Positions 42,438-61,114 of a DNA stretch of 64,000 bases are shown here, in pieces. Made by a program: the position numbers and the translations under genes. Under the pieces are notes generated by a model, which saw nothing but the letters and a program-made list of their open reading frames with translations, was not told the DNA's origin and did not search any database. Source of the stretch: an uncultured Clostridia bacterium (GTDB taxonomy: Bacteria; Bacillota; Clostridia; Oscillospirales; CAG-272); assembly GCA_947628165.1 (NCBI GenBank), contig CANQYV010000002.1, positions 33,575-97,574 on the forward strand. Direction: 5' to 3'. Within the stretch, counting starts at the first letter, position 1. Each line of letters begins with the position of its first letter.

Positions 42438-42455
42438 TACTGCGGGAGCATTTGC

Positions 42456-43637
42456 ATGAAGATACTTTTAAACGACAACTACAAAAATCTGAAGAAAAAC
42501 TACCTCTTTTCGGAGATAGGCGCGCGCGTGCGCGCGTATTCCGAGGCGCACCCGGACGCAAATATCGTCCGCCTCGGCATCGGGGACGTGACGCTGCCGC
42601 TCACTAAGAGCGTTACCGTGGCGATGGCAAAGGCCGTCGCCGAGATGGCGGACAAGGCGACGTTCCGCGGGTATTCTCCCGAGTACGGATACGATTTTCT
42701 CATCCGCGCGATAGCGAACCATTATAAAAGATACGGCGTCACGCTCGCGTGTGACGAGATCTTCGTTTCCGACGGGGCAAAGAGCGACGTCGGAAACATA
42801 ACGGAGCTTTTCGGCGACAATCCGGTGCTCATTCCCGACCCTGTGTATCCTGTTTATCTCGACAGCAACATAATGGCGGGCAGAAGGGTGTCTTTCCTGC
42901 GCGCCGGTGAGGAAAACGGATTTCTCCCGACGCCGGAGGGGCTGTCGGGCGAGGGGTATATCATATACATCTGCTCGCCGAACAACCCGACGGGCGCCGT
43001 CTACGACAGGGCGGGCCTTTCGGAATGGGTGAATTTTGCAACGGCGTCGGGCTCGCTCATCATATTCGACAACGCGTATGAGGCTTATATAAACGGGGAC
43101 TACCCGCATTCGATATACGAGATCGAGGGCGCGCGCGGCTGTGCCATAGAGATTTGCAGCTTCTCGAAAACGGCGGGATTTACGGGGACGAGGTGCTCGT
43201 GGACCGTCGTCCCGCGCGAGCTTTCCTCGGGCGGCGTCTCGCTCTGCGAAATGTGGGGCAGGCGGCAGGCGACGAAATTCAACGGTGTGCCTTACGTCGT
43301 CCAGCGCGGCGCGGAAGCGGCGCTCTCCGACGAGGGCTTCCGCGAATGCCGCGAGCTCGTGGGCTATTATATGGAGAACGCCGCGCTCATCTCGGGCGTC
43401 ATGAGAGACAAGGGCATCTACTTTACGGGCGGGACGTCGTCGCCCTATATCTGGATGAAGTGCCCGGACGGCTGCCCGTCGTGGACGTTCTTTGACAAGC
43501 TGCTCTCCGAGGCGGAGGTCGTCGGAACGCCCGGCGCTGGCTTCGGCGCGTGCGGCGAGGGATATTTCAGGCTGACGTCGTTCGGTTCGCGCGAGGCGAC
43601 CGAGGAGGCGGTCAGGAGACTTTACAAGTTCCTGTGA
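42456..43637 (+). CDS. dapL: LL-diaminopimelate aminotransferase
   Basis: NDNYKNLKKNYLFSEI, LGIGDVTLPL, and SFSKTAGFTGTR (PLP lysine). Confidence 0.9.
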   Translation: MKILLNDNYKNLKKNYLFSEIGARVRAYSEAHPDANIVRLGIGDVTLPLTKSVTVAMAKAVAEMADKATFRGYSPEYGYDFLIRAIANHYKRYGVTLACDEIFVSDGAKSDVGNITELFGDNPVLIPDPVYPVYLDSNIMAGRRVSFLRAGEENGFLPTPEGLSGEGYIIYICSPNNPTGAVYDRAGLSEWVNFATASGSLIIFDNAYEAYINGDYPHSIYEIEGARGCAIEICSFSKTAGFTGTRCSWTVVPRELSSGGVSLCEMWGRRQATKFNGVPYVVQRGAEAALSDEGFRECRELVGYYMENAALISGVMRDKGIYFTGGTSSPYIWMKCPDGCPSWTFFDKLLSEAEVVGTPGAGFGACGEGYFRLTSFGSREATEEAVRRLYKFL

Positions 43638-43659
43638 GCCGGAAGGGGACAATAGGACG

Positions 43660-44964
43660 TTGAAACACGGATTTCTGCATTCCAATATAGAAGAACGGGA
43701 CGGAAGGCTCTTTTTCGCGGGCGCCGACACCGTCGGTCTTGCCGAAAAGTATGGCACGCCGCTGATGCTGCTCGACGAGGACAGGATACGCGCGCGCTGC
43801 CGCATGTACCGTCGTGCGGCGGAAAAATATTTCGGCGAGGGGTCGAAGCCTCTCTACGCCTCAAAGGCGCTCTCGTTCCGAGGCATATATCGCATAATGG
43901 CGGAGGAGGGAATGTCGGCGGACATCGTATCCCCCGGCGAGCTCTACACCGCCGCGAGCGCGGGCTTCCCGATGGAAAACGCGTATTTCCACGGAAATAA
44001 TAAGTCCGACGCTGACGTCGAGTACGCGGTGAAAAACGGGATAGGATATTTTGTCGTCGACAGCGTGGAGGAGCTCTCTGCCGTCGACAGGATCGCGGGC
44101 GAGGCGGGGATAAGGCAGAGAATACTTCTGCGGATAACGCCCGGCATCGACCCGCACACGCATGAAAAGATAAACACGGGACGCGTCGACTCAAAATTTG
44201 GGTTCGCGATCGAGACCGGGGCGGCCGAGAGGATCACGGGCGAGGCGCTCTCTAAAAAGAACGTCGAGCTCTGCGGCTTCCACTGCCATATCGGCTCTCA
44301 GATATTCGACGCCGCGCCGTTTATGCTCGCGGCGGAGCTGATGATAAGGTTTATCGCTGACATAAAGGAAAAGACGGGATATGAGGCCGAGATCCTGAAC
44401 CTCGGCGGCGGCTTTGGCGTCCGCTATGTGGAGGACGACCCAAAGGCAGATATCGAGGCGATGATAGAGGCATCGGCAAATACCGTGAAGAGGGCGTGCC
44501 GCGAGTGCGGCGTCCGTATGCCCCGCATACTGCTCGAGCCGGGGAGAAGTATAGTCGCCGACGCGGGCATGACATTGTACACGGTCGGCACCGTAAAGGA
44601 GATACCGGGCTTCCGCAATTACGTCTCCGTCGACGGCGGCATGACGGACAACCCGAGATACACGCTTTACGGCGCGAGATATACTATGGCGGTGGCGAAC
44701 AGGGCGGACGCCGAGGCGGATTTTGAATGTACCGTCTGCGGCAGGTGCTGCGAGAGCGGAGATCTTCTCGGCGAGAGGATAATGCTTCCGCGCCCCGAGC
44801 GGGGAGACCTGCTCGCCGTGTTCGTGACGGGGGCATACAACTATTCGATGGCGTCGAATTACAACAGAGTCTGCCGCCCGCCCGTCGTGATGATAAGAGA
44901 CGGGAAAGACACGCTCGCCGTCCGCCGCGAGAGCTTCTCTGACATGACTGCGTGCGATATTTGA
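43660..44964 (+). CDS. lysA: diaminopimelate decarboxylase
   Basis: YASKALS (PLP Lys), HCHIGSQI, GGGFGVRY, EPGRSIVA, and CESGD. TTG start. Confidence 0.93.
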   Translation: MKHGFLHSNIEERDGRLFFAGADTVGLAEKYGTPLMLLDEDRIRARCRMYRRAAEKYFGEGSKPLYASKALSFRGIYRIMAEEGMSADIVSPGELYTAASAGFPMENAYFHGNNKSDADVEYAVKNGIGYFVVDSVEELSAVDRIAGEAGIRQRILLRITPGIDPHTHEKINTGRVDSKFGFAIETGAAERITGEALSKKNVELCGFHCHIGSQIFDAAPFMLAAELMIRFIADIKEKTGYEAEILNLGGGFGVRYVEDDPKADIEAMIEASANTVKRACRECGVRMPRILLEPGRSIVADAGMTLYTVGTVKEIPGFRNYVSVDGGMTDNPRYTLYGARYTMAVANRADAEADFECTVCGRCCESGDLLGERIMLPRPERGDLLAVFVTGAYNYSMASNYNRVCRPPVVMIRDGKDTLAVRRESFSDMTACDI

Positions 44965-46845: not shown

Positions 46846-46886
46846 AGCGCCGCCGTATTGACACGGCGGCGCTTTGATGATATAAT
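46846..46886 (+). promoter_or_regulatory. consensus promoter of the TerB/ATPase/helicase cluster, with its -35 box enclosed by a perfect 10-bp inverted repeat
   Basis: AGCGCCGCCG-tatTTGACA-CGGCGGCGCT. TTGACA at 46858..46863, 17-nt spacer, TGaTATAAT at 46878..46886. The ATG follows at 46924 after gaggtggag. Confidence 0.7.
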
Positions 46887-46923: not shown

Positions 46924-48696
46924 ATGGCAAAAGAACGCGGTATCCCGGACGATTTCTGGGACATAGGCTCGCTTTTGCCTAAAAAGCGCCCTCCCGTCAT
47001 GAGGGAGCGGAAGCCGGACGTTGAGACGGTGGAGCTCGAGCTGCCCGTGATAAAAAAGCCGGACGGCGGGCTGTCCGCGCGCTTCCGCGAGGTCAATGTT
47101 GATATCGTGAAAAGGGACGTCCGGACGGAAACGGTTAAGATAAATATAAACGCAGGGCGGAGGGGTACCGACACCGCCGCCGTCAATGTCAACGTCAAAA
47201 TTGATGCAAATGCAAACGTCAATACAAATTCGGGCTCCGGCTCCGTCGGCGCGGACGCGCTCAGGCTGCCGGAGAGACGGCGGACGGAGCGGCAGACGGC
47301 GGAGGTCGTCGACGAATACTTTCCCGAGGGCGGGCTCGTAAAGCGCGTCCGCATCATGAAGTGGGCGTCGAAATACAGTTTTTACGAGCAGTTCCGCTTC
47401 GACGCGAAGAGATATTCCGGCGAGCGCGGCGAGGAGTGCCCTGAGGTCGATTTTTTCTCATACACTCCGCAGTACAGGCAGATGTCGCGCGCGCAGCTTT
47501 CGTATTATTTCTGGTGGAGAAGGCGCGCGCTCGAGGGGGAGTGGCTGCCGGCGTCGTTTTCGTACGTTCTTCTGTTCGTTTACGAGACGATAAACCTCGG
47601 AGACGAGCTTACACCCGAGGAGGGGCTCGACAGGCTCACGGGCGTTTGGCTCGCGTACCGTGACAAATATCATGTGCTCGACAAATACCTGTCCGAATGG
47701 CTCGCCGACTACTGCATGATACACAGGCTGCCGCCTCCGAGGGAAAGGCTTTCCCCCATAATGCACGCGATAATGGAGAACGCGAGCTTCCGCGAATTTT
47801 ACATGGCGGGCGGCGAGGAAGGCATCCCGGCGGAGACGATGATAGCGCTCTCTTCCGACTACGACTGGCACAAGAGCAAATTTGCCGCCGACAACGGCGA
47901 GCTTTACGCGCGGCACATTCCCGCCGCCGTCGCGTATGTCGCAAAACGCTGCGGGGACGACACGTTTTCCGCAAAGGGGATGAGGTCCGCCGTCGTGTCG
48001 AGGGACGCGTACTGCGGCTCGCTCTGCGCCCACAACGTCAAATGCAGGATAGATATCGAGTACCTCTCCTTCGTCCGTTCGCGGGAGCTGAGGGGGCTTA
48101 TGACGGAGCTCGTGAAATATTCCGAAAACAGGCTGCGCGCCGCGCTCGGCGTGCGCTCGCGCCTGCGCGTCGGCGAGCTGCCGGAAAAATACCGCCTCAT
48201 CGCGGACGAATACTTCGACCGCGAGTTCCCGGAGACAAAAAAGCGCATGTCCCGCGCGGCTGAGGAGGCGGCGTATGAAGCATCGTATGAGGCGGCGTAT
48301 GACGCGCTCTCGCACGGACTTGACACGGGCGACGCGCTTTTGATAGAAAAGAGCTCGTGGGCGTCGACGGAGCTGCTCGTCGACGAGCCTGAAGAGACAG
48401 AAAAAGCAGAAAAGACGGAAGAGACGGAAAAGAAAGAGACCGACGCGGACACGGAGACGCATGAGGGCGGCATATTCGCACGGCTCGACGATGTGTCGGG
48501 GGAGTATCTGTCGGCGCTTTTGAGCCTCGGCGGGGACGCCGCGCATCGGCTGACTCTCGAGCGCGGCGTTTACGAGGACGAGATCGTCTCGCGCATCAAC
48601 GAGGCGGCGGTCGACGAAATAGGGGACATAATAATCGAGCCGGCGGACGGCGGATACAAAATCGTCGAGGATTACAGGGACGACATAACGGCATAG
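46924..48696 (+). CDS. TerB-N / TerB-C domain protein (Shango SngA-like)
   Basis: TerB-N-like core (VDFFSYTPQYRQMSRAQLSYYFWWRRRALEGEWLPASFSYVLLFVYETINL). Acidic linker. TerB-C-like tail (YEDEIVSRINEAAVDEIGDIIIE..YKIVEDY). Confidence 0.8.
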   Translation: MAKERGIPDDFWDIGSLLPKKRPPVMRERKPDVETVELELPVIKKPDGGLSARFREVNVDIVKRDVRTETVKININAGRRGTDTAAVNVNVKIDANANVNTNSGSGSVGADALRLPERRRTERQTAEVVDEYFPEGGLVKRVRIMKWASKYSFYEQFRFDAKRYSGERGEECPEVDFFSYTPQYRQMSRAQLSYYFWWRRRALEGEWLPASFSYVLLFVYETINLGDELTPEEGLDRLTGVWLAYRDKYHVLDKYLSEWLADYCMIHRLPPPRERLSPIMHAIMENASFREFYMAGGEEGIPAETMIALSSDYDWHKSKFAADNGELYARHIPAAVAYVAKRCGDDTFSAKGMRSAVVSRDAYCGSLCAHNVKCRIDIEYLSFVRSRELRGLMTELVKYSENRLRAALGVRSRLRVGELPEKYRLIADEYFDREFPETKKRMSRAAEEAAYEASYEAAYDALSHGLDTGDALLIEKSSWASTELLVDEPEETEKAEKTEETEKKETDADTETHEGGIFARLDDVSGEYLSALLSLGGDAAHRLTLERGVYEDEIVSRINEAAVDEIGDIIIEPADGGYKIVEDYRDDITA

Positions 48697-48711: not shown

Positions 48712-50130
48712 ATGGAAAACGCAAAAACGGGCGGCGGCACGGCGCGCGTGCCGAAAAGGATACTGTCGCAGCTTATGAGCTCGCTTTCCGCGGGCGTCGT
48801 TCCGCGCGCGGGCGCGCCCTATATCGCGATAGGCAGGACCGAGGAGATAGCGGCGCTGACGGGAGACCTCGCCCGTGTCTCCGACGGCGAGGGCGCTATG
48901 CGCTTTATAATAGGAAGATACGGCTCGGGCAAGAGCTTTCTGCTCCAGCTCATGCGCGGATACGCGCTCGAGCGCGGCTTTGTCACGGCGGACTGCGATC
49001 TCTCGACAGAGCGCAGACTCTGCGGCTCGTCGGGCACGGGGCTTGCGACGTACCGCGAGCTTTTACGAAATCTCGCGACAAAGTCGTCGCCGGACGGCGG
49101 CGCGCTGCCGCAGCTTCTGGCAAGGTGGATATCGGATATAAAGTCCTCCGTCGCATCCGGCGGCGCCGAGGTCGGCGGCGAAAGGTTCGACGCGGACGTG
49201 AAGGCAAGAATATTCGAGGTCATAAGAGGGCTTGAGGCGGGCGTCGGCGGATTTGACTTCGCGCTCGTGCTGTCGAGGTATTACGAGGCCTGCGAGGCGG
49301 GCGACGAGGAAAAAAAGAGCGCATGCCTGCGCTGGCTCAGAGGGGAATATTCGACAAAGACGGAGGCAAAGGCGGCGCTCGGCGTCGGAATGATAGTGAA
49401 CGACGACAACTGGTACGACGAGATAAAGCTCATCTCGCGCCTCGTCTCCGGGATAGGGTACGCGGGGCTCGCCGTGTTCATAGACGAATGCGTCAATCTC
49501 TATAAGATACCGAACAGGATCTCAAGGGAGAACAATTACGAAAAGATCCTGTCGATGTATAACGACACGCTCGAGGGCAGGGCGGAGCATCTTTTCCTCG
49601 TCTTTTGCGGCACGCCGCAGTTTCTCGAGGACAGGCGGCGCGGGCTCTTCAGCTATGAGGCGCTGAGGGGAAGGCTCGCGGACGGGAGATTTGACAACGG
49701 CGAGTACAAGAACATGCTCGGCCCCGTCATAAGGCTGAGAAGGCTATCTGACAACGAGCTTCTGGCGCTCGTTCTGCGCGTGACGGCGCTGCACGCGGAA
49801 AATTACGGCTGGACGCCGCGCATCTCCGACGGCGACCCCGAGGCGTTCGTCCGCGCGAGCCTCGAGATGGCGGGGGCAAATGTAATGATAACTCCGCGCG
49901 AAATAATAAGGGACTATATCTCGGTGCTGAATATTCTTTATCAGAACCCCGAGGCGGCCTTTTCCGACGTCGTCGGCACGGCGCTGACGCTGACGCCCGC
50001 AGGCGAGGCGGACGACATCACGGAAGAAACGGATGCCGCAGCCAAAGCAGACACGAGAGCCGACGCAAAAGCCGACGCGGCAGAGAAAAATCCCGCCTCA
50101 AGCTTCGACCCCAACGATATCGTAATATAA
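48712..50130 (+). CDS. DUF2791 / BrxD-like P-loop ATPase (Shango SngB-like)
   Basis: Walker A IIGRYGSGKSFLL, Walker B LAVFIDECVNL, and a TYRELLRNLAT block. ggagga RBS 15 nt after the upstream stop. Confidence 0.8.
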   Translation: MENAKTGGGTARVPKRILSQLMSSLSAGVVPRAGAPYIAIGRTEEIAALTGDLARVSDGEGAMRFIIGRYGSGKSFLLQLMRGYALERGFVTADCDLSTERRLCGSSGTGLATYRELLRNLATKSSPDGGALPQLLARWISDIKSSVASGGAEVGGERFDADVKARIFEVIRGLEAGVGGFDFALVLSRYYEACEAGDEEKKSACLRWLRGEYSTKTEAKAALGVGMIVNDDNWYDEIKLISRLVSGIGYAGLAVFIDECVNLYKIPNRISRENNYEKILSMYNDTLEGRAEHLFLVFCGTPQFLEDRRRGLFSYEALRGRLADGRFDNGEYKNMLGPVIRLRRLSDNELLALVLRVTALHAENYGWTPRISDGDPEAFVRASLEMAGANVMITPREIIRDYISVLNILYQNPEAAFSDVVGTALTLTPAGEADDITEETDAAAKADTRADAKADAAEKNPASSFDPNDIVI

Positions 50131-50162: not shown

Positions 50163-50229
50163 TAAAAAGTTTTGGAAAAGAGAGGGCGCGGGGGAGAAAA
50201 ACCTTTCTCAAAAGGTTTTCCTCCCCCGC
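50163..50229. repeat. dispersed hairpin element, copy E, inside the candidate defence cluster
   Basis: taaaaagttttggaaaagagagggc + GCGGGGGAGAAAAACCTTTctcaAAAGGTTTTCCTCCCCCGC. No T-run follows on the + strand. Confidence 0.75.
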
Positions 50230-50248: not shown

Positions 50249-52507
50249 ATGAGAACAGCCGAAGAAGTAATAGAGCGGTTTGCGCCGTTCATACAGGAAT
50301 ACATCTATTCGCACGGCTGGGAGAGCCTGCACGATGTGCAGCTCTGCGCCGCCGAAACAATATTCTGCACAGACAACAATCTGCTCATAACGTCGGCGAC
50401 GGCGTCCGGCAAGACGGAGGCGGCGTTTTTCCCCATTCTCTCCGAGTTCTGCTCGGACCCGCCGAAGAGCGTCGGCGCGCTGTATATAGCGCCGCTCAAG
50501 AGCCTCATAAACGACCAGTTTTCCCGCATCGACGAGCTTCTCGACATGACGGGGATCCCGGTATATCACTGGCACGGCGACGTCGCGCAGTCGCACAAGA
50601 CGAAGCTTTTGAAGTCGCCGTCGGGTATCTTACAGATAACGCCGGAGTCGCTCGAATCGATGCTGATGAACAGGCCGAACGACATACCGCGCCTTTTCGG
50701 AGACCTGCGCTACGTCATAATAGACGAGATACACACGATGACGAACACGGACCGCGGGAATCAGGTCATCTGCCAGCTTGAGCGCATATCGCGCTCGATA
50801 GGGCACAGACCGAGAAGGATAGGTCTTTCGGCGACGGTCGGCGATCCCGAGGCGGCGGCAAGGTGGCTCTCGGGCGGCGATACTCGCGACTGCGACATCC
50901 CGCGCCCGGCGGAGCGCCCGCTTCGGTGGCGGCTGGGGCTCGAGCATTTCTTCCTCGCGGACGAGGAGACGCTTCACACGGGGACGCACGAGATAAGAAA
51001 AACGCCGTCGCAGGGCGACCTCGGATTTTCCGACGGAGAGGGGCCGACGGAGATCGACCCCGGATACGAATACGTCTACGACTGCGTAAAGGGCAGGCGC
51101 GCGCTCGTCTTCTCAAATTCGCGCGAGGAGACGGAATACGTCTGCGCGACGCTGCGTCAGATAGCGGAAAACAGGCACGAGCCCGACATTTTCCTCATAC
51201 ATCACGGCAATCTTTCCGCCTCTATAAGAGAGGAGGCGGAGCTGCTCCTCAAGAGCGAGGAGGAGAGGATGGTGGCGTGCGCCACTGTCACGATGGAGCT
51301 GGGGATAGACATCGGAAAGCTCGAAAGGATCGTGCAGATAGGCTCGCCGACGTCCGTTTCGAGCTTCCTTCAGAGGCTCGGGCGGTCGGGGAGGCGCGGC
51401 GACCCGCCGGAGATGATGATGGTGTTCCGAGAGGAGCCGCACGTTCCGAACACGCCGCTCCCGCAGCTTATGCCGTGGGAGCTTCTGCGCGCCATAGCGA
51501 TAATACAGCTCTATATAGAGGAGCGGTTCATAGAGCCGCCGCTGACGAGAAGAATGCCGTTCTCGCTCTTGTTCCAGCAGACGCTGTCCGTCCTCATATC
51601 GTCGGGCGAGCTCACGCCGAAAGCGCTCGCGGAGCGCGTTTTGTCCCTGCCGCCGTTCAGGCAGGTCGACCGCGAGGATTACAGGACCCTGCTCGTCTCG
51701 ATGATAAAAAACGATTTTCTCGAATATACAGACGAGGGCGGGCTCATAATCGGAATAAAGGGAGAGAGACTGACGTCGGGCTTCAAGTTCTACGCGGTAT
51801 TCAAGGATTCGGAGGACTACACGGTGCGCTGTGAGTCCGACGAAATAGGCACGATATCGGAGGCGCCGCCCGTCGGCGACAGGTTCGCGCTCGCCGGGCG
51901 CGTCTGGGAGGTCGAGGAGCTCGACCTGCCGAGAAAGCTCATATATGTAAAGTCCGTCGGCGGAAAGATGGAGATATCGTGGCCGGGCGAGTTCGGAGAG
52001 ATACACACCCGCATACTCGAGCGGATGTACCGCGTCCTTGCCGAGGATACGCAGTACCCGTACCTCAAGGCGGGCGCGATGAGGAGGCTTGACGCGGCGA
52101 GGCACACGGCGAGAAACACCGGTATGCTCGACGGACCGATAGTGTCGCTCGGCGGGCTGTCGTACTGCATGTTCCCGTGGCTCGGGACGAAGAGCTTCCG
52201 CACGCTGAGGCGGTACCTTGCGAAGAACGCGCAGAAATACAAGATATCGGGGATAGAGTTCGAGGGCTGCTGCTTCATAGAGTTCAAAATGGAGAAGGCG
52301 GACAAAAACGCGCTGATGGAGGATATAAACCGCGACTTTGCCGCGGGCGTCGACAAATACTCCCTCGTCGGCGAAAACGAGACTCCGGCGTTCGACAAGT
52401 ACGACGACTACGTCCCCTCGGAGCTTTTGCGCCGCGCTTACGCCGAGGAAAGGCTCCGCACCGACGAGATAGAGGCGCGGGCGAAAAACGGCTGGCGCAT
52501 AGAATAA
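50249..52507 (+). CDS. Lhr-like DEAD/DEAH-box superfamily-2 helicase (Shango SngC / BrxHI-like)
   Basis: Motif I TSATASGKTEAAF, motif II VIIDEIHTM, motif III SAT, motif VI LQRLGRSGRRG, plus a long C-terminal domain. Confidence 0.85.
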   Translation: MRTAEEVIERFAPFIQEYIYSHGWESLHDVQLCAAETIFCTDNNLLITSATASGKTEAAFFPILSEFCSDPPKSVGALYIAPLKSLINDQFSRIDELLDMTGIPVYHWHGDVAQSHKTKLLKSPSGILQITPESLESMLMNRPNDIPRLFGDLRYVIIDEIHTMTNTDRGNQVICQLERISRSIGHRPRRIGLSATVGDPEAAARWLSGGDTRDCDIPRPAERPLRWRLGLEHFFLADEETLHTGTHEIRKTPSQGDLGFSDGEGPTEIDPGYEYVYDCVKGRRALVFSNSREETEYVCATLRQIAENRHEPDIFLIHHGNLSASIREEAELLLKSEEERMVACATVTMELGIDIGKLERIVQIGSPTSVSSFLQRLGRSGRRGDPPEMMMVFREEPHVPNTPLPQLMPWELLRAIAIIQLYIEERFIEPPLTRRMPFSLLFQQTLSVLISSGELTPKALAERVLSLPPFRQVDREDYRTLLVSMIKNDFLEYTDEGGLIIGIKGERLTSGFKFYAVFKDSEDYTVRCESDEIGTISEAPPVGDRFALAGRVWEVEELDLPRKLIYVKSVGGKMEISWPGEFGEIHTRILERMYRVLAEDTQYPYLKAGAMRRLDAARHTARNTGMLDGPIVSLGGLSYCMFPWLGTKSFRTLRRYLAKNAQKYKISGIEFEGCCFIEFKMEKADKNALMEDINRDFAAGVDKYSLVGENETPAFDKYDDYVPSELLRRAYAEERLRTDEIEARAKNGWRIE

Positions 52508-52510
52508 AAA

Positions 52511-54949
52511 ATGAAGACGGAATACGACAGGGAGATAGGCACCGTCACGGTCTCGGTGCGCGACCTCGTGGAGCTTGTCTGCCGCGGAGGCAGCATAGGA
52601 GGGCGGCAGGGAGTCAGCGCCGCCGACGGGATATCGGCGCACAAAAACGAGGAGGACGGCGCGCGGGACGCAATGACGGAGGTCCCGCTCGAATGCGAAT
52701 TTCAGACGGGAGGCATAACATACCGCGTGCTCGGTCGGGCGGATATGATAATCCCCGGCGAGCCCGACATTGTCGAGGAGCTCAAAACGACGCCGTCGAC
52801 ATTCGTCGGCGGAAACGACGCGATCCCGAAGGCGCACATCGCGCAGGGCGTGCTATACGCGCATATGTGGTGCCGCGGAACGGGAGCCGCCTCGGCGGCG
52901 GTAAGAATAACTTACGTTCCGAAAAAGGAGGGCAGACGCCGCAGCTTCGAGTGCGTCTTTTCGGCGCAGGAGCTGAAGGCCGAGGCGGAAGCTCTTGTCG
53001 GGAAATACGCGAGGTGGGCGTCGCTTGAGATATCGCGCGCGACGGAGCGCGAGGCGTCCGTCAAGGCGATAAGGTTCCCGTTCGGGCAGCCGCGCGAGGG
53101 ACAGACCGAGTTCATGGAGGCCGTCATGAGGGCGGCAAGACGGCGCGGGCGTGCGCTGATTCAGGCGCCGACCGGGACGGGAAAGACGATGGCGGCGCTC
53201 TACCCGGCTGTGAAGGCGCTCGGCGTCGGCTATACGGACAGGATCTTTTATCTGACGCCGAAAACCTCGACCCGGCTTGCCGCGGAGGAGGCGGCGGGCA
53301 CGCTCGCGGCGGCGTGCCGCGTGCTGCGGTCAGTGACGATACTTGCAAAGGAGCGCGTCTGCCCCGCGGCCGAGAGACTGCGGTCGGGAGAGGTCTGCTC
53401 GGCGGAGAGCTGCGAGCGCGCGAACGGTCACTACGACCGCGTCGGCGACGCGCTGTGGGAGCTTATAGCGGAGTTCGGCGCCGGCCGCCACATCGGTCCC
53501 GGAGATATAGTGCGGACGGCGGAGAAATACAAGGTCTGCCCGTACGAGCTCTCGCTTGACGTCTCCGATATGTGCGACATAATAATCTGCGACTACAATT
53601 ATGTTTTCGATCCGCGCGTATATCTGCGTCGCTTCTTTGAGGACGCGCCTCAGAGCGAGCACAAGGGGGAGCGGTACATGTTTCTCTGCGACGAGGCGCA
53701 CGACCTTGTCGACCGCGCGCGGGATATGTTTTCGGCGGGGATATCGCTCGCCGAGGCGGAGTCTGCGCTCGTGTTCGCGGAGAAGGAGAGCGGCCTTCAC
53801 GACGCGCTCTCTGCCGTATGCGATGAAATGAAAAGGCTGCGCGGCCTCTGCGGGGAGGTGACGCGCGGCGAGGACGGAGAGGCGAGCGGATATTACGTCG
53901 GAAGGGAGCCGTTTTCGGCGCTCGCGTCCCTTTCCGCGAAGGCGGCGGACGAATGCGGAAGAGAGGCGTTCTTCCTGCGCCGTTCGGAGTCTGCGGATGA
54001 GAGGCGGCGCGCCTCGTCGCTGTCGTCGTTCAGACGCACGCTGTCCGACTTTGCCGCGTCCGCGGACGGGTTCGACAAGCGGCACACGGCGTATATAGAG
54101 ATGTCGGGCGGGGACACGAGGATATCGCATCTGTGTCTTGACGCGTCGGGGCACCTCTCGGAAAGGTTCGGCAGGGCGTCGTCCGCCGTGCTGTTTTCGG
54201 CGACGCTTGAACCGCCGGACTATTTCGCGAGCGTGCTCGGGCTCGGCGACTGCGACACGGTGGAGCTGCCGTCCCCGTATTCGGAGGAAAATCTCTGTCT
54301 GCTCGCGGCGGACAAAATAAGCACCCGCATGGGAGACAGGGAGACGACGTCGGCAGATATCGCCGCTATGGTGTACGCGCTCGCGATGGCGAAGACGGGA
54401 AATTACATCTGCTATCTGCCGTCGTACAAATATCTCGAAACGGTGTCCCGCGTTTTCTGCGGCAGATATGCGCAGGGCGAGGTCGACGTCGTCATTCAGG
54501 AGAAGAGGATGACGGAGCGCGAGCGGGAGAGGTTCCTCTCGTCGTTCTCGCCGTCGCCGAACAGGAGCCGCGTCGGGTTTGCAGTGCTCGGCGGCGTCTT
54601 TTCCGAGGGAGTCGACCTTCCGGGAGACAGGCTCTCGGGCGTCGTCATCGTCGGCGTCGGGCTGCCGGGGCTTTCGTCGGAGACGAATCTGCTCCGCGAC
54701 TACTACGAGCGCGTCTGCGAGCGCGGATACGAGTTCGCGTATGTATTCCCCGGGATGAACAAGGTGCTGCAAGCGGCGGGACGCGTCATAAGGGGCGAGC
54801 GAGACCGCGGCGTCGTCCTTTTGATAGACGACAGGTTCGCGTCGAGGGAGTACACGAGGCTCTTCCCCTCGCACTGGCGCGGCATCCGCTACGTCGGAGA
54901 TCTGCGCTCGCTGGGAGTCGCGCTGCGCGCTTTCTGGGACGGAAAATGA
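52511..54949 (+). CDS. PD-(D/E)XK (RecB/Cas4-like) nuclease domain fused to an XPD/DinG/Rad3-type Fe-S helicase
   Basis: N-terminus GRADMII..IVEELKT..QGVLYAHM. Helicase motif I IQAPTGTGKT. Four-Cys cluster (VCPAAE..VCSAESCE..VCPYE). DEAH box LCDEAHDL. C-terminal QAAGRVIR. Starts 3 nt after the upstream stop. Confidence 0.8.
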   Translation: MKTEYDREIGTVTVSVRDLVELVCRGGSIGGRQGVSAADGISAHKNEEDGARDAMTEVPLECEFQTGGITYRVLGRADMIIPGEPDIVEELKTTPSTFVGGNDAIPKAHIAQGVLYAHMWCRGTGAASAAVRITYVPKKEGRRRSFECVFSAQELKAEAEALVGKYARWASLEISRATEREASVKAIRFPFGQPREGQTEFMEAVMRAARRRGRALIQAPTGTGKTMAALYPAVKALGVGYTDRIFYLTPKTSTRLAAEEAAGTLAAACRVLRSVTILAKERVCPAAERLRSGEVCSAESCERANGHYDRVGDALWELIAEFGAGRHIGPGDIVRTAEKYKVCPYELSLDVSDMCDIIICDYNYVFDPRVYLRRFFEDAPQSEHKGERYMFLCDEAHDLVDRARDMFSAGISLAEAESALVFAEKESGLHDALSAVCDEMKRLRGLCGEVTRGEDGEASGYYVGREPFSALASLSAKAADECGREAFFLRRSESADERRRASSLSSFRRTLSDFAASADGFDKRHTAYIEMSGGDTRISHLCLDASGHLSERFGRASSAVLFSATLEPPDYFASVLGLGDCDTVELPSPYSEENLCLLAADKISTRMGDRETTSADIAAMVYALAMAKTGNYICYLPSYKYLETVSRVFCGRYAQGEVDVVIQEKRMTERERERFLSSFSPSPNRSRVGFAVLGGVFSEGVDLPGDRLSGVVIVGVGLPGLSSETNLLRDYYERVCERGYEFAYVFPGMNKVLQAAGRVIRGERDRGVVLLIDDRFASREYTRLFPSHWRGIRYVGDLRSLGVALRAFWDGK

Positions 54950-55130
54950 GGCGCAGTTGTGCTTTTTCACAGGAAAACGGCGCCCGAGCACAAAATTATT
55001 GTATAATGCCCCTGCATAATTGTGTTGCAATTTTTTCATCTTTATAATATAATAGATACACTGCCCGTACAAAAATGAAATTGTGTTGCTTTCAAATTGC
55101 AAAAAAATGAAAGCGGGAGAGGACTTCACT

Positions 55131-56534
55131 ATGGAAAGAGCGGACATAACGACGGTAAAACAGATATTCGCTTCCCCCGAGGCATACGCAGACCGCGAGC
55201 TTCACGTCGCGGGATGGGCGCGCAAGCTGCGCGCATCGAACGCGTTCGGCTTCATAGAGCTGAACGACGGGACGTATTTCTCCAACATTCAGATAGTGTT
55301 CGAGGCGGATGTCCTTGCAAACTACGACGAGATAGCGCACCAGAACATAGGCTGCGCGCTGCACGTCAGAGGCAAGCTCACGCTCACGCCGGAGGCGAAG
55401 CAGCCGTTTGAGATACACGCGTCGTCGGTGACGGTGGAGGGCGCGTCCACGCCCGATTACCCGCTTCAGAACAAGCGGCATACAATGGAATATCTGCGTT
55501 CCGTCGCGCACCTGCGCCCGAGGACGAACACGTTCAACGCGGTGTTCCGCGTCCGCAGCGAGGCGGCGTTCGCGATACACAGCTTCTTCCATGAAAGGGG
55601 CTTCATTTACGTCCACACGCCTATCGTGACGTGCTCCGACTGCGAGGGCGCGGGCGAGATGTTCCGCCTGACGACGCTCGATATGGAAAACCCGCCGAGG
55701 GGAGAGGACGGAAAGATAGACTTCTCGAAGGATTTCTTCGGCAAGCCCGCGAACCTCACGGTGTCGGGCCAGCTGAATGTCGAGACGTTCGCGCAGGCGT
55801 ACTCGAACGTGTACACGTTCGGGCCGACGTTCCGCGCCGAAAATTCCAACACGCCGCGTCACGCCGCGGAGTTCTGGATGATAGAGCCCGAGATCGCGTT
55901 TGCGGATCTCGAGGACGATATGGAGCTTGCGGAGGCGATGATAAAGCACATCATCCGCCACGTCCTCGAAACGTGCCCCGCCGAGATGGACTTCTTTGAC
56001 AAGTTCGTTTCCCCGGGCAAAAAGGAGCAGCTTACAAAGCTCGTCGAGAGCGATTTCGGCAGGGTGACTTATACCGACGCCGTCGAAATGCTCGCGAAGT
56101 CCGGCGCGGATTTCAAGTTCCCCGTGTTCTGGGGCATGGATATGCAGACCGAGCACGAGAGATACCTGACGGAGCAGATATTCGGCAAGCCGGTGTTCGT
56201 CACCGACTATCCGAAGGAGATAAAGGCGTTCTATATGCGTCAGAACGACGACGGGAAGACGGTCGCTGCGTGCGATATGCTCGTGCCCGGCGTCGGCGAG
56301 ATGATAGGAGGCTCACAGCGCGAGGAGAGGCTTGACTTTTTGCTTTCCGCGATAGAGCGCTGCGGGCTCCGCGAGGAGGATTACTCCTGGTATCTTGCGC
56401 TCCGCCGCTACGGGAGCACGAAGCACGCGGGCTACGGTCTCGGCTTTGACAGACTGCTCATGTATATGACCGGTATGCAGAATATAAGGGATACCGAGCC
56501 GTTCCCGCGCACCGCGGGAAGCGCGGAATTCTAA
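55131..56534 (+). CDS. asnS: asparagine--tRNA ligase
   Basis: [14 protein letters not shown]-fold, class II motifs [21 protein letters not shown] and [12 protein letters not shown]. gggagagga RBS before ATG 55131. Confidence 0.93.
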
Positions 56535-56546: not shown

Positions 56547-57857
56547 GTGGAAATTTTGACTGTGACGCGCTCTGAGATAAGAAGACACGACATTCGGAGG
56601 CATAGTAACTTGGAAACGGAGAATACGGCGGAGCTCAGGCTCCGCTATGAAGAGATAAAATCACGGGGGCTCGCGCTCGACCTGACGCGCGGCAAGCCCG
56701 GGCGGGCGCAGCTCGACCTTTCGATGGGGATGCTGGACGTTGTCAAAAACAGCGCCGACTGCCTCTCGGAGGGCGGACTCGACTGCCGAAACTACGGCGT
56801 CCTCGACGGACTGCCGGAGGCAAAGCGCCTCTTTTCGGACCTGCTCGGAATACCGGCGGAGAACATACTCGTCGCGGGAAACTCGAGCCTCAATATAATG
56901 TACGACACGATGATACGCGCGATGCATTTCGGCGTTTACGGGAGCCCGCGTCCGTGGGGACGCGAAAAGACGGTGAAGTTCCTCTGCCCCGTCCCGGGAT
57001 ATGACCGCCACTTCGCCATATGCGAGTCGCTCGGCATCGAGATGATAAACGTTCCGATGAACGCGGACGGCCCCGACATGGACATTGTCGAGAGGCTCGT
57101 ATCCGAGGACGAGCAGATAAAGGGCATATGGTGCGTCCCGAAGTACAGCAATCCGTCGGGGCTCACATACAGCGACGAGGTCGTTAAGAGATTTGCGGCG
57201 CTCGAGCCGAAGGCGCCCGATTTCAGAATATTCTGGGACAACGCGTATGCGGTGCACGATCTCTACCCCGACAAAAAGACAGTGCTCTGCGACATCTTCG
57301 CCGAGGCGAGAAAGCTCGGGCGGAGAAACGAGAACATGATAATGTACTTCGCGTCAACGTCGAAGATAACGTTCCCGGGCTCCGGCGTCGCGATAATGGC
57401 GGCGAGCAGGGACAACCTCGACCAGATAAAGGGGCTCATGACGTATCAGACGATAGGATACGACAAGATAAATCAGATGAGGCACGTCAAATACTTCGGC
57501 TCCGCAGACGGGATACTCCGCCACATGGAGCATCACGCGGAGATACTGCGCCCCAAGTTCGACATCGTGCGCGAGGTGCTCGAGCGCGAGCTCGGAGGGC
57601 TCGGCATCGCGGAGTGGACGCCGCCGCTCGGAGGGTATTTCATCAGCCTCGACGTCCTGCCCGGCAAGGCAAAGCGCGTATACGAGCTTTGCCGCGACGC
57701 GGGAGTTAAGCTGACGGAGGCGGGAGCTACATATCCCTACCACCGCGACCCCGACGACAGAAACCTTCGCATCGCGCCGACATTCCCCGACAACGACGAC
57801 CTCAGGCTCGCGATAGAGATCCTCTGCCTCTGCGTAAAACTCGCGTCCGCAGAATAA
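56547..57857 (+). CDS. class I/II-fold PLP-dependent aminotransferase
   Basis: LDLTRGKPGRAQLDL, VPKYSNPSG, and SKITFPGSG (PLP Lys context). Start uncertain (GTG 56547 or TTG 56610 after cggagg). Confidence 0.8.
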   Translation: MEILTVTRSEIRRHDIRRHSNLETENTAELRLRYEEIKSRGLALDLTRGKPGRAQLDLSMGMLDVVKNSADCLSEGGLDCRNYGVLDGLPEAKRLFSDLLGIPAENILVAGNSSLNIMYDTMIRAMHFGVYGSPRPWGREKTVKFLCPVPGYDRHFAICESLGIEMINVPMNADGPDMDIVERLVSEDEQIKGIWCVPKYSNPSGLTYSDEVVKRFAALEPKAPDFRIFWDNAYAVHDLYPDKKTVLCDIFAEARKLGRRNENMIMYFASTSKITFPGSGVAIMAASRDNLDQIKGLMTYQTIGYDKINQMRHVKYFGSADGILRHMEHHAEILRPKFDIVREVLERELGGLGIAEWTPPLGGYFISLDVLPGKAKRVYELCRDAGVKLTEAGATYPYHRDPDDRNLRIAPTFPDNDDLRLAIEILCLCVKLASAE

Positions 57858-57904: not shown

Positions 57905-58026
57905 ACAAAAAGCCTTAGAAGCTTTTGAAAGAGGGGCCCGGGGGGAAGGAAGATGCCGCGAAAGCGGCATCTTCTGCTTTTTCGCAAAGCGAAAAAGCCC
58001 ATTTTCTCGAAAAGTTTCTCCCCCGC
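57905..58026. repeat. dispersed hairpin element, copy F: composite form with two extra perfect hairpins nested between the outer arms
   Basis: Leader acaaaaagccttagaagcttttgaaagaggggc. Outer arms CCGGGGGGA..TCTCCCCCGC. Inner stems GAAGATGCCGC/GCGGCATCTTC and GCTTTTTCGC/GCGAAAAAGC. Confidence 0.7.
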
Positions 58027-58031: not shown

Positions 58032-60368
58032 TTATACTAATCCCTTCCTGACGGCGCACCAGCGACGGAAGCAGATGACGGCGGCGGCGACGCCTGCGGC
58101 GAGCCACACGACCCATGTGATGACGGACGACACGTCGACCTGCGACGAGCAGAGGGACCACATCCCCTCGGCGGATGAGACGGCGAGCACTGGAGTTATG
58201 AGCCGCATCACGTCTATGCCGAGCGCGAAGAGAAGCGCCGGTATGCCGAAGAAGAGAAGGTTCAGCATGTAGGAGAGCTCGTTTGTCCTGACGCACGAGC
58301 TAACGAGCATGACGGCGAACGAGAGGATGAGGAGGGCTGCAAGCCTTGCGGCATAGAGGAGCAGCAGATACTGTCCGATCGTGACGTTCAGAGGCGAGGA
58401 CGCGAACACGTCGAAGTTCCGTATCGGAACGTCAAGCTCGATCGCGGACGGGAAGGCCGATTTCAGCCAAAGAAATTCGCGGATGTAGACGATGCCGAAC
58501 GAGAACGCCGCTGCCCCGAACGAGACAAGCATTTTGCGGACAAAAATGTGCCCGCGCCCGCGCTTCTGCGCGCGAAGCATATAGACAACGCCGGACTGAT
58601 TTTCAAACGACATCACGGCGGCGCACGAAACGACAGTGAAAACTATGGCGACGGCGGCGTTTACGCGCTGGAGGTCCACGGCGGTGGGACCGTATACGGA
58701 TCTATAGTAGTTGTCGTTCGCTATCCACGGCTCATATCCGCCCGCCTCTGCCCGCGCCCGGAGCTCTGCGACGCGCGCCTCCACCTTGTCGAGCGCGGAA
58801 AGCAGTTCGCCGTTCCCGTTCGCGTATTCGCGGGCGTTTTCTATATATTCGTCGGTCTTTTGCGTTATCGGACCCGCCATATCTTTCAGGTACGCGTCAT
58901 AAATTGTGCTTTTTGATGAAGAGTACCGGAAATACGACAGGCTGCCGCTCGCGATGAATATTATGACGAGCAGAATTATGCCGCGCTCAAAGACGAGGAA
59001 TTTGTACGCCTCCCAGCCTCCGGTCGTGAAGTGCCTGCGGAAGAAATCAGCACATTTGTCCCATACGCCGACGACGGCGGAGATGAGGTCGCGCCTGCCC
59101 TCGGGCCGCTTGCGGCAGACGAGGAGCACAAGTGCGAAGCATGCGGCGGCGAATACGGGCAAAAATGCGAGCGAGAGCCGCCTTATCCCGAACGGGAATC
59201 CGAAGAGGTCAATATTCAGGTATTCGGTATAAAGCTTCGATGTTCTTATATAGGAGAAGAGATTGAAGTATTTGACGGGATTGAAGATGCTCTGTACCGG
59301 CAGAAACGCGAAGAGGATGTATTCGACGGCGACAACGACGCCGAGCACCGCCACAGAGTACTGGACGTTTGAAACGGAGCCGAGGATCGCCCAGAGAAAG
59401 AGACCGACCGCAAAGCCGGACGCCGCTTTCACGAGCAGATATTCGATGATGAAGCCGCCTATCGTTATTTTCTGCGTGAACGTGCGGAAGCTGACCATCG
59501 ACTGTATCGCGCGGCCCGTATCGCCCCATCCGCCGGAGAGGGTGAGCGAGAAGAGAAGGTTCACGCCGTATATGAGGAACACGCCGAGCACACAGGCGGA
59601 CGCAAGGATCAGGACACGCGTGAGCCCGAGACGCAGTCGGCCGCATTTGGAGCTCCTTATGACGCCCCAAAGTCCCGCCCTCCTTTCCTCAAGGAAGGAA
59701 AGGACGAAGATAACTATGACGAGAAGATAGAAATAGTCGGCGAGCTCGTAGGAAATCCAGCCCTCATACGCGCGGTTCGCGCCGAACTCGACCTCGGTCC
59801 CGCGCAGCTTGTCAAATTCCTCCGCAGTCTTGACGATGTTGCGGTGCGAAAAGCTGTTTTCGTCGCCGAAGATGGACGTCATCGACTGCTGCTCCGCCTG
59901 CCGCTGGACTTTGTCGAGGTATTCGGCATATCCGGAGATATATTCGTGCTGCTCGAAGAGCTCAGAAAGCCTCATATCCGCCGCGTTCAGAATGTGCTCC
60001 GCGCTCTCGTCGTCAAGCTTCTCGACGGACGATAGAAACTCGCTTTTTTCGACTTCGGCCTTAAGCTCATCCTCGGGGATGAGGAGAAAATCGCTGTGTT
60101 TCATCACGCGCAGCATATAGTACGAGTCGAGTACGTTGTATTCCTCGTCGAGCATGGCGCCGATCTCCTCGTCAGAAAGCCCGCGTGAACGCCCGATCAT
60201 GTCTGCGTAGTAGCGCTCGCCCTCGATAAGAGCGGAGACGGAGCCGGGCCCGAAGTAGGGCATGCGTCCGTAGAAAAAGAAGACGACGGACAAAAGCGAG
60301 ATGAGAAGAAGCGTAAAAATACGCCTCGGATTGGAATATATTCGTTTCCATTCACCCATGCTGACCAC
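58032..60368 (-). CDS. large ABC-2-type permease-like membrane protein (778 aa)
   Basis: N-terminal TM helix, ~190-aa soluble region, two blocks of about 6 TM helices separated by a soluble domain. Lies 8 nt downstream of the ABC ATPase. Alternative ATG at 60359. Confidence 0.65.
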   Translation of the reverse strand: MVSMGEWKRIYSNPRRIFTLLLISLLSVVFFFYGRMPYFGPGSVSALIEGERYYADMIGRSRGLSDEEIGAMLDEEYNVLDSYYMLRVMKHSDFLLIPEDELKAEVEKSEFLSSVEKLDDESAEHILNAADMRLSELFEQHEYISGYAEYLDKVQRQAEQQSMTSIFGDENSFSHRNIVKTAEEFDKLRGTEVEFGANRAYEGWISYELADYFYLLVIVIFVLSFLEERRAGLWGVIRSSKCGRLRLGLTRVLILASACVLGVFLIYGVNLLFSLTLSGGWGDTGRAIQSMVSFRTFTQKITIGGFIIEYLLVKAASGFAVGLFLWAILGSVSNVQYSVAVLGVVVAVEYILFAFLPVQSIFNPVKYFNLFSYIRTSKLYTEYLNIDLFGFPFGIRRLSLAFLPVFAAACFALVLLVCRKRPEGRRDLISAVVGVWDKCADFFRRHFTTGGWEAYKFLVFERGIILLVIIFIASGSLSYFRYSSSKSTIYDAYLKDMAGPITQKTDEYIENAREYANGNGELLSALDKVEARVAELRARAEAGGYEPWIANDNYYRSVYGPTAVDLQRVNAAVAIVFTVVSCAAVMSFENQSGVVYMLRAQKRGRGHIFVRKMLVSFGAAAFSFGIVYIREFLWLKSAFPSAIELDVPIRNFDVFASSPLNVTIGQYLLLLYAARLAALLILSFAVMLVSSCVRTNELSYMLNLLFFGIPALLFALGIDVMRLITPVLAVSSAEGMWSLCSSQVDVSSVITWVVWLAAGVAAAVICFRRWCAVRKGLV

Positions 60369-60376: not shown

Positions 60377-61114
60377 TTATTCGCCGAGAAAATAGAGATA
60401 TACGTCCTCAAGCGAGAGCCTGTATGCGACGGGCTCCCAGTCGTCGGGGACGGCGGCGATAAGCTCGGCGGGAGGCGCCGAGCGCAGAAGCTCGCCGCGG
60501 CGGAGCAGGAGGACCTCGTCCGCTATCGACTCTATGTCGGAGACGATGTGAGTCGCGAGAAGGACGATCCTGTCGCTCGCGAGCTGCTTTATGAAGCCGC
60601 GTATGCGGACGCGCTCCTTCGGGTCAAGACCCGCCGTCGGCTCGTCGAGAATGAGGACCTTCGGGTCGCCGAGCAGCGCCTGGGCGAGCAGGACGCGCTG
60701 CTTCATGCCGCCGGAAAATCCCCCGATCTTCTTGTGACGGACGTCGGAAAGATTCGTCAGCTCGAGGACGCCGTTTACCTCGGAGGCGAGCTTTTTGCCG
60801 CGCAGTCCCTTCAGCCTGCCCATGTAGGTGACGAAGCTCTCGGCTGTCATCTGCGCGTAGACGCCCTGCTGCTGCGGCATATATCCGAGCTGCGCGCGGA
60901 ATTTGTCGCCGAGCTCGAGTATTTCTTTGCCGTCAAACGTTATGCTGCCGCCGTCTCGCTTTATGTTGTCGGTGATGAGGTTCATCATCGTCGACTTGCC
61001 GGCGCCGTTCGCGCCGAGGATACCGTAAATTCCGGGGGTGAAGGTCATGGAAAAGTCCGAAAGCGCGACGAGCTTTCCGTATCGCTTTGTTACGTTTGTA
61101 AGTGCAAGCTCCAT
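60377..61114 (-). CDS. ABC transporter ATP-binding protein (ABC-2/CcmA-like)
   Basis: Walker A GANGAGKST, signature FSGGMKQR, and Walker B LILDEPTAGLD. Confidence 0.9.
   Translation of the reverse strand: MELALTNVTKRYGKLVALSDFSMTFTPGIYGILGANGAGKSTMMNLITDNIKRDGGSITFDGKEILELGDKFRAQLGYMPQQQGVYAQMTAESFVTYMGRLKGLRGKKLASEVNGVLELTNLSDVRHKKIGGFSGGMKQRVLLAQALLGDPKVLILDEPTAGLDPKERVRIRGFIKQLASDRIVLLATHIVSDIESIADEVLLLRRGELLRSAPPAELIAAVPDDWEPVAYRLSLEDVYLYFLGE

Follow-up and report, generated by a model that had tools for sequence, protein, structure and literature searches.

The locus examined here lies in a 64,000-nt stretch from an uncultured rabbit-gut Clostridia bacterium (contig CANQYV010000002.1, positions 33,575 to 97,574; the whole stretch is called the window below). 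It raises the question of whether a large nuclease-helicase encoded immediately behind an antiphage module is an effector of that module or a resident enzyme that has come to lie beside it. A first-pass annotation, made from the sequence alone, described the protein as a fusion of a RecB/Cas4-like PD-(D/E)XK nuclease to an iron-sulfur (FeS) helicase of the XPD/DinG type, called the expected activity effector-like and suggested co-translation with an upstream TerB/ATPase/helicase module. The open reading frame (ORF) encodes an intact EndoDinG, i.e. a superfamily 2 (SF2) helicase of the DinG/XPD family that carries an N-terminal Cas4/RecB-like PD-(D/E)XK nuclease, and all the sequence and structural hallmarks of this type of protein were found. 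The three genes that precede it form a complete Shango antiphage system. The gene is probably a resident, repair-type EndoDinG that in this lineage has become the final cistron of a Shango operon, a relationship for which the data do not require any functional dependence.

The nuclease-helicase fusion seen by the first-pass annotation is correct as an architecture, but the family to which it belongs, already described and crystallised, was not recognised. The name EndoDinG was given in a 2025 review to those DinG-like helicases whose N-terminus is a PD-(D/E)XK nuclease (PMC11981726), and the first structure of a member, that of the 748-residue DinG of Finegoldia magna (FmaDinG, PDB 9KQH, 2.26 Å), appeared in July 2026 (PMC13650095). 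FmaDinG is a Mn2+-preferring endonuclease and a Mg2+/ATP-dependent 5'-3' helicase, and the FeS cluster of its helicase part is seen in the structure (PMC13650095). Both activities that the first-pass annotation had predicted, 5'-3' unwinding and nuclease cleavage, have therefore been shown for a homologue, and by analogy the window protein would possess them too.

The window protein is a divergent further member of this family. A phmmer search of PDB sequences aligned its residues 12–790 with residues 5–748 of 9kqh_A (E = 1.1e-119), the N-terminal domain included, while Pfam matched the helicase part only (Helicase_C_2 3.8e-38, DEAD_2 5e-9 and a weak HBB match). The AlphaFold2 model of the whole protein (predicted local distance difference test, pLDDT, 89.9; predicted template-modelling score, pTM, 0.88) likewise retrieved 9kqh_A as its best Foldseek match (E = 4.7e-65, template-modelling (TM) score 0.79 normalised to target length, 792 aligned columns), followed by archaeal and eukaryotic XPD, Escherichia coli DinG, Staphylococcus aureus ExoDinG and CasDinG. 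With FmaDinG and the B. bacteriovorus EndoDinG of PMC11981726, it shares the PD-(D/E)XK nuclease, a first motor domain with FeS and Arch inserts, a second motor domain, the H-E-D-E-K set of nuclease residues, the four FeS cysteines and the helicase motifs, and the alignment runs end to end (33–37% identity). It differs from them in its length (812 residues versus 748 in FmaDinG), in a nuclease domain that is only about 25–27% identical to those of distant family members, and in being encoded by the last gene of a Shango-type operon.

The nine peptide strings quoted in the first-pass annotation, from the nuclease motifs to helicase motif VI, each occur once in the ORF and in the quoted order, which is far beyond chance. 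A profile of the N-terminal domain alone matched the N-terminus of 9KQH (1.4e-48) and the Cas4 protein SSO0001 (4IC1, 3.6e-10). The AlphaFold model of residues 1–192 (pLDDT 86.8) matched the N-terminus of 9KQH with a TM score of 0.78, and the next Foldseek neighbours were SSO0001 (E = 3.3e-9), RecE and the Argonaute-associated Cas4-like ACE1, with EXO5, AdnA/AddA, MGME1 and lambda exonuclease further down. These profile and model matches establish that the assignment to the RecB/Cas4-like PD-(D/E)XK nucleases is correct. Pfam and NCBIfam searches with residues 1–200 gave no match and a homologous-protein search with the same 200 residues returned nothing, whereas the full-length query gave homologues.

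The nuclease centre of FmaDinG comprises H40, E54, D75, E88 and K90, with R10 and R73 as substrate contacts (PMC13650095). Pairwise alignment places H44, E57, D78, E90 and K92 of the window protein opposite the five centre residues, and R17 and R76 opposite the two arginines. In an alignment of 57 full-length homologues (39–82% identity to the window protein), on which all conservation counts given here are based, D78 is invariant, E90 and K92 are found in 54, Q112 and Y116 in 48, and H44 and E57 in 47. The four FeS cysteines, located between Walker A and DEAH, are present in all 57. The nuclease and Arch domains are, according to the domain identities, the fastest-evolving parts of the protein. 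Residues 27–31, modelled with low confidence, coincide with the position of the helix-to-loop "gate" reported near residues 18–28 of FmaDinG (PMC13650095).

The nuclease domain has the same fold and the same ordered D / ExK / QxxxY motifs as Cas4 (SSO0001) and the RecB-family nucleases AddA/AddB, AdnA, Dna2, EXO5, RecE and MGME1 (Foldseek E from 3e-9 to 1e-3). In the window protein, the FeS cluster sits in the helicase and not in the nuclease domain; the helicase partner is part of the same polypeptide and is of the SF2 XPD type, not SF1. The cysteines of the nuclease domain (C24, C62, C121 and C148) are not conserved among homologues, and this domain does not carry an FeS cluster of the Cas4/AddB type. 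The protein was therefore rejected as a Cas4 proper: it has the RecB-motif fold but neither the nuclease-domain FeS cluster nor an association with cas1/cas2, as no cas gene was found among the window ORFs scanned.

An assignment to the ExoDinG type, exemplified by S. aureus and Bacillus DinG with their N-terminal DnaQ-like 3'-5' exonuclease (PDB 8ZEF, 9II8), was also rejected. The N-terminus has no DnaQ match, and TIGR01407 and PRK08074 reach only 88–103 bits against cut-offs of 548–789, over the C-terminal part of the helicase. ExoDinG and the window protein are both Firmicute members of the DinG family in which a nuclease is coupled to 5'-3' translocation, but the nuclease fold is DEDD/DnaQ in the former and PD-(D/E)XK in the latter. 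Some ExoDinG members carry a pseudo-FeS domain, according to the review. The defence effectors DdmD (of DdmDE) and Hna also combine an SF2 helicase and a nuclease in one polypeptide and are weak structural neighbours (Foldseek E from 1e-10 to 1e-9). They differ by TM scores of only 0.3–0.4, another domain order and nuclease position and the lack of an FeS domain, and no relationship of DdmD or Hna to the window protein was detected at the sequence level.

The TerB, ATPase and Lhr-like helicase genes upstream are as the first-pass annotation described them, but their identity as Shango had escaped it: all three PADLOC models (SngA, SngB and SngC) match, in the canonical A-B-C order. Shango is a validated three-gene system in E. 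coli and Pseudomonas (Millman et al. 2022, 10.1101/2022.05.11.491447; Johnson et al., 10.1101/2022.11.11.516204); no description of its mechanism or effector was found in the Shango literature searched, and PADLOC holds no fourth Shango model. The window system, whose antiphage activity is a prediction from its gene content, has the TerB protein, the ATPase and the helicase of canonical Shango. It differs in lying among housekeeping genes instead of in a defence island, in being vertically inherited and in having EndoDinG as a fourth cistron.

A consensus promoter heads the four-gene string and is followed by a ribosome-binding site, GAGGTGGAG, and by an ATG. SngA probably starts at this ATG (46924), because the TTG proposed by the ORF finder (46858) is the −35 hexamer itself. 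The spacers measure 15 nt between SngA and SngB, 118 nt between SngB and SngC, 3 nt between SngC and EndoDinG and 133 nt between EndoDinG and asnS. The SngB-SngC spacer contains a hairpin that is not a canonical terminator, as its T-run is found on the minus strand only, where no gene ends; a role in processing or stability, or in partial attenuation, is conceivable. The 3-nt gap noticed by the first-pass annotation is confirmed. No Shine-Dalgarno sequence was found in the 20 nt before the EndoDinG ATG (the junction reads ...GCGCATAGAATAAAAAATG), nor was any terminator-like site found between SngC and EndoDinG; an Rfam scan of the operon gave no match, and there is no T-box before asnS. The short gap and the lack of a Shine-Dalgarno sequence make co-transcription with Shango, and coupling to SngC by termination-reinitiation, likely. 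As judged from this layout, EndoDinG is very probably transcribed from the Shango promoter and probably coupled translationally to SngC.

The distribution of the two components was studied using one genome per GTDB species. The EndoDinG scan gave 257 relatives, of which the best 79 loci were analysed, and the SngC scan gave at least 554 relatives, of which the best 80 loci were analysed; all these loci were searched for the window proteins, and the annotated contigs of six further EndoDinG homologues were consulted (locus labels are given in brackets below). EndoDinG and Sng genes occur together in 13 genomes, with EndoDinG identities of 50–98%; the window and L005, its GTDB representative at 98% identity, count as one genome here. 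These genomes form one clade of uncultured, Oscillospirales-like gut Clostridia and display four arrangements. In six of them (window/L005, L001–L004, L084), SngA-B-C, EndoDinG, asnS and aspAT are colinear; in five (L085, L086, L160, L165, L166), SngC-B-A lie on the opposite strand and EndoDinG-asnS-aspAT follow. The twelfth (L161) has SngABC, two unrelated genes and EndoDinG, and has lost asnS and aspAT from the neighbourhood. The last, a Clostridiales metagenome-assembled genome from an anaerobic digester (L087, 6822–12776), has SngC and, 48 nt later, EndoDinG, without SngA or SngB within 8 kb upstream. The SngC-EndoDinG spacer is 3–48 nt in all the directly colinear genomes examined.

Several particularities of these loci were recorded. 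A serine recombinase gene (Resolvase/Recombinase/Zn_ribbon_recom) and a DUF6870 gene are located directly upstream of SngA in L161 (1–2903), which is the most divergent Shango-EndoDinG genome; the recombinase may be a trace of movement of the Shango cassette. In L087, an alpha/beta hydrolase and ABC transporters take the place of SngA/B, and SngC without detectable SngA/B is also found in several other loci (e.g. L122, L137, L140, L142 and L151). In L084, a 260-residue ORF with a retropepsin-like aspartyl protease domain (10286–11068, Asp_protease_2, 1.5e-12) lies between SngC and EndoDinG.

Most EndoDinG loci (74 of 79, at 33–40% identity) have no Sng gene within 10 kb. They belong to Bacilli and other Firmicutes (Paenibacillus, Neobacillus, Tissierellaceae, Defluviitaleaceae and others) and their conserved neighbours are metabolic genes that differ between genera, such as proB/proA, amylase or alcohol dehydrogenase genes; the Listeria gene is flanked by a Crp/Fnr regulator gene and yidA. 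In outgroup Oscillospirales (43–44% identity), MecA precedes EndoDinG, aspAT and a radical SAM gene without Shango, once followed by mraZ and the dcw cluster. Conversely, 71 of the 80 SngC loci (64–69% identity), with SngABC or SngC alone, have no EndoDinG within 8 kb. In B. subtilis, the promoter PdinG drives dinG-ypmA-ypmB-aspB (PMC10938345), so that the co-transcription of an ExoDinG gene with aspB resembles the position of the window gene ahead of asnS-aspAT. Since Shango-free outgroups have the EndoDinG-aspAT arrangement and the dinG-aspB arrangement of B. subtilis parallels it, this association is the older, housekeeping one, and the Shango cassette is, as far as gene order and phylogenetic spread can tell, a newcomer that arrived once at the EndoDinG locus.

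Within the 13 linked genomes, identities fall into concordant ranks for SngC (99, 91–92, 86–87, 79–80 and 75–76%), AsnS (99, 89–90, 86–88 and 76–81%) and EndoDinG (98, 63–65, 60–61, 53–54 and 50–52%), which indicates that the whole neighbourhood is vertically inherited. SngC is conserved like AsnS in every comparison (e.g. 91% versus 89%, or 79% versus 76–81%), while SngA (33–57%) and EndoDinG (50–65%) evolve much faster; For a "defence" helicase, SngC is thus exceptionally stable; it is inherited vertically and does not lie in a defence island.

EndoDinG was also considered as a mobile or phage gene and rejected as such: plasmid and phage collections yielded chromosome-like "plasmids", unannotated "phage" contigs (Listeria, Enterococcus and faecal) and one Legionella plasmid. 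The latter, the conjugative plasmid pB1445CHC_73K of Legionella longbeachae (L170, 7001–11009), encodes a full-length EndoDinG-like helicase of 27% identity, whose gene overlaps a downstream GIY-YIG nuclease gene by 8 nt. Both genes belong to an SOS/translesion cluster that also comprises dinB, umuD and genes for a Y-family polymerase, an SOS-response-associated peptidase (SRAP) and an endonuclease.

Combining these data, the following scenario is proposed for the window protein. As in FmaDinG (PMC13650095), two RecA-like motor domains would engage a single-stranded 5' tail and, driven by ATP, move along it in the 5'-3' direction, and the 4Fe-4S and Arch domains would split the duplex. The DNA would then be threaded past a flexible gate loop (approximately residues 20–35) into the nuclease site formed by H44, E57, D78, E90 and K92, which would cut it endonucleolytically, probably with a preference for Mn2+. 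The gene would be a resident chromosomal gene for DNA processing or repair and not a mobile defence gene, with EndoDinG then aspAT as its ancestral context and asnS between them in this clade. The Shango cassette would have come to lie directly upstream in an ancestral gut Clostridia genome from which a single clade descends and, in the sub-lineage of the window, the colinear order with 3 nt and no Shine-Dalgarno sequence would have tied EndoDinG expression to the Shango operon. A role in genome maintenance is inferred from the context of the gene, including the SOS cluster of Legionella.

Several points weigh against this scenario. The "repair" role is itself drawn from context. The Shango-EndoDinG neighbourhood has survived in at least four rearranged configurations, as L161 keeps the proximity after the loss of asnS/aspAT and L087 keeps SngC-EndoDinG without SngA/B, and this persistence could reflect selection for linkage. 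In the species of the window, EndoDinG synthesis would depend on SngC translation, because the gene lacks a Shine-Dalgarno sequence. The sequence was found in four rabbit-gut metagenome runs, all of DNA and none of RNA. Finally, in two other clades the gene that follows SngC is also a DNA-repair gene, namely AddB-AddA and UvrA.

In the first of these clades, from rumen and gut, the string SngA-SngB-SngC-AddB-AddA is found in about 14 species-level genomes of Clostridia, down to 42% AddB identity, with an overlap of 4–8 nt between the SngC stop and the AddB start. AddBA loci outside this clade (AddB identity of 34% or less) have no Shango upstream; an AddB scan with a single sequence gave two loci only, and an alignment was used for a second one. 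Like EndoDinG, AddB unites a helicase-like fold with a RecB-type nuclease and an FeS cluster. In three genomes (L143, 4377–13383; L144; L149), SngABC is followed on the same strand, 110–320 nt later, by uvrA (NCBIfam UvrA, 1490 bits), behind which lies a conserved 565-residue ORF without any family match. Repair genes account for three of about 48 unrelated contexts downstream of SngC. Endonuclease IV (nfo) was rejected as the identity of the largest cluster of these downstream genes (PF01261, AP_endonuc_2): NCBIfam gives weak similarity to sugar-phosphate epimerases/isomerases only and no nfo match, and the cluster encodes a sugar-phosphate isomerase-like TIM barrel. Metabolic genes are also found 3 nt after SngC or overlapping it (2-keto-3-deoxy-galactonokinase in L128, an aminotransferase in L153). 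The new point of this work is the position of EndoDinG directly behind Shango in this rabbit-gut bacterium and its relatives; within the literature searched, neither the two EndoDinG papers nor the Shango papers mention the Shango-EndoDinG, SngABC-AddBA or SngABC-UvrA contexts.

These contexts bear on the effector role proposed by the first-pass annotation. EndoDinG would then function as the fourth member of a variant Shango system, in which the nuclease-less SngABC recruits or activates it as a DNA-degrading effector against phages or plasmids, AddAB or UvrA being its equivalent in sister lineages. The tight spacing without a Shine-Dalgarno sequence does suggest translational coupling, the short spacers recur in all colinear relatives (at most 48 nt) and adjacency is kept through the four arrangements of the 13 genomes, L087 and L161 included. 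The AddB-AddA strings, with their overlapping codons, and the three SngABC-UvrA genomes point in the same direction, as do the want of any effector in the Shango literature searched, the presence of DdmD and Hna among the structural neighbours and the fact that the authors of the EndoDinG structure name protection from mobile elements among its possible roles (PMC13650095). However, the large majority of SngC loci and of EndoDinG loci are unlinked, and canonical Shango works as three genes. The five divergent genomes of the clade exclude co-transcription there, and EndoDinG-asnS-aspAT is equally conserved at the same loci, so that synteny alone proves little. Unrelated metabolic genes lie as close to SngC, repair genes are rare among the downstream contexts, the largest cluster of which is not Nfo, and all linked genomes belong to one clade, hence to one evolutionary event. 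The part of the effector proposal that holds is thus the translational coupling favoured by the junction; membership of the module appears unlikely, given that the two are adjacent in a single clade only and that five genomes of this clade have them in divergent orientation.

A broader version, considered rather improbable, is that Shango lacks an effector of its own and, in Oscillospirales-like gut Clostridia, has been wired by operon fusion, at least three separate times, onto resident repair machines (EndoDinG, AddB-AddA and UvrA). SngABC would then act as a sensor or loader and pass DNA that is foreign or damaged on to a helicase-nuclease of the host.

It is very improbable that the protein is a helicase only, with a degenerate PD-(D/E)XK fold at its N-terminus that has no catalytic activity and serves only to bind or guide DNA, as in a "pseudo-exonuclease" DinG. 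The mean identity of this domain to distant homologues is 27%, which places it with the least conserved parts of the protein, and H44, E57, R76 or E90 is missing from about 5–10 of the 57 homologues. In the window protein and in every close relative, however, the full H-E-D-E-K set is kept, as are R17, R76, Q112 and Y116, and mutation of the equivalent residues reduced or abolished the nuclease activity of FmaDinG (PMC13650095). The homologues with replaced residues (e.g. GVADA...VEQIK) retain D78, K92 and the helicase motifs and may form a "pseudo-nuclease" sub-branch of the family.

An identity as a CRISPR-associated DinG (type IV CasDinG) has next to no likelihood: the best PADLOC label of the protein (PDLC01439, "typeIV_DinG, CAS-IV-A associated", 1.5e-118) covers only the generic helicase core (residues 189–789), the score for the Csf4 equivalog TIGR03117 is 21 bits where the cut-off is 400, the FeS cysteines are intact and invariant whereas the FeS module of CasDinG is degenerate, 9KQH and XPD are much better Foldseek matches than the CasDinG structures, and no CRISPR-like repeat array was found in the 64-kb window and no cas gene among its scanned ORFs.

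The remaining genes of the window (Table 1) support the reading of the gene as a resident EndoDinG at a housekeeping locus in one respect: its flanks are of that kind (lysine biosynthesis, two peptidases, asnS, aspAT and an ABC transporter), its guanine-cytosine content is ordinary and no mobile-element gene or integrase was found among the window genes. The promoter-like site in front of asnS suggests that asnS-aspAT can be transcribed independently of the upstream genes; asnS and aspAT are conserved neighbours, outside the Shango-EndoDinG module. Further downstream, a 778-residue ORF without Pfam or PADLOC match (58032–60368, minus strand; 94% identity in L005) lies immediately downstream of an ABC-transporter ATPase gene on the same strand (60377–61114). 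It may encode a divergent FtsX-type permease, as relatives have ABC_tran+FtsX fusions at this place. A 355-residue protein (35606–36673) has an N-terminal Macro domain (2.8e-48) and an unannotated remainder. A 39-nt tandem repeat (24414–24701, 7.4 copies, 76% matches), presumably a 13-residue coding repeat, lies inside a 565-residue ORF (24227–25924).

Table 1. Features of the window, in order of position, and of the SngABC-AddBA loci of other genomes (last row)
Feature	Position	Strand	Details
Lysine riboswitch	39581-39756		Rfam RF00168, 76.6 bits; upstream of lysine-biosynthesis operon
dapA-dapB-dapF-aminotransferase-lysA operon	39912-44964		
Sigma-70-type consensus promoter	46858..46886	+	TTGACA, 17 nt, TATAAT with TG extension; 12/12 match; heads SngA-SngB-SngC-EndoDinG string
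SngA (TerB_N + TerB_C)	46924..48696	+	Pfam TerB_N 2.4e-14, TerB_C 1e-11; PADLOC 1.3e-46
SngB, BrxC/BrxD-type P-loop ATPase	48712..50130	+	Pfam BrxC_BrxD 7.9e-155; PADLOC 2.2e-163
Near-perfect hairpin, SngB-SngC spacer	50188..50229	unassigned	18-20 pairs; minimum free energy of spacer -36.1 kcal/mol, z = -3.8, 0/200 shuffles as good
SngC, Lhr-like DEAD/DEAH helicase	50249..52507	+	PADLOC 1.1e-242, full model; Pfam DEAD, Helicase_C
Spacer AAA, SngC stop to EndoDinG ATG	52508..52510	+	3 nt; SngC TAA ends at 52507, EndoDinG ATG at 52511
EndoDinG-family nuclease-helicase	52511..54949	+	ATG to TAA, 812 residues
N-terminal PD-(D/E)XK (Cas4/RecB-like) nuclease domain	52511..53080	+	residues 1-190; profile, structure model
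Nuclease catalytic core	52640..52786	+	H44 52640-52642, E57 52679-52681, D78 52742-52744, E90 52778-52780, K92 52784-52786
Nuclease motif strings			GRADMII residues 75-81, IVEELKT 87-93, QGVLYAHM 112-119
Walker A / motif I APTGTGKT	53165..53188	+	residues 219-226; GxGKT invariant in 57 homologues
FeS domain	53360..53539	+	ligands C284, C296, C301, C343; strings CPAAE 284-288, CSAESC 296-301, CPYE 343-346
Walker B / motif II DEAH	53690..53701	+	residues 394-397; invariant in 57 homologues
Arch domain	53741..54145	+	about residues 411-545, boundaries approximate; helical insert in model, aligned to 9KQH
Motif VI QAAGRVIR	54770..54793	+	residues 754-761; Q754, G757, R758, R761 invariant
Promoter-like site	55025..55053	+	TTGCAA, 17 nt, TATAAT; 10/12 match; in 133-nt spacer before asnS
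asnS, asparagine-tRNA ligase	55083-56534	+	NCBIfam AsnS 642 bits, above cut-off
aspAT, aspartate aminotransferase type Ic	56547-57857	+	NCBIfam AAT 633 bits, above cut-off
Terminator-like hairpin after aspAT	57948-57975		
SngABC-AddBA loci	L099/L171 5023-17003		also L105, L108, L109, L116, L119, L172-L178, L185, L096, L193

Together with the SngABC-AddBA and SngABC-UvrA operons, this locus provides a testable hypothesis that links the role of EndoDinG to the effector of Shango. If EndoDinG were the nuclease arm of a Shango variant, it would be the long-sought Shango nuclease, and this would give EndoDinG its first in vivo role. If the link were false, the locus would show that a gene packed tightly into an operon beside a defence system need not belong to that system.

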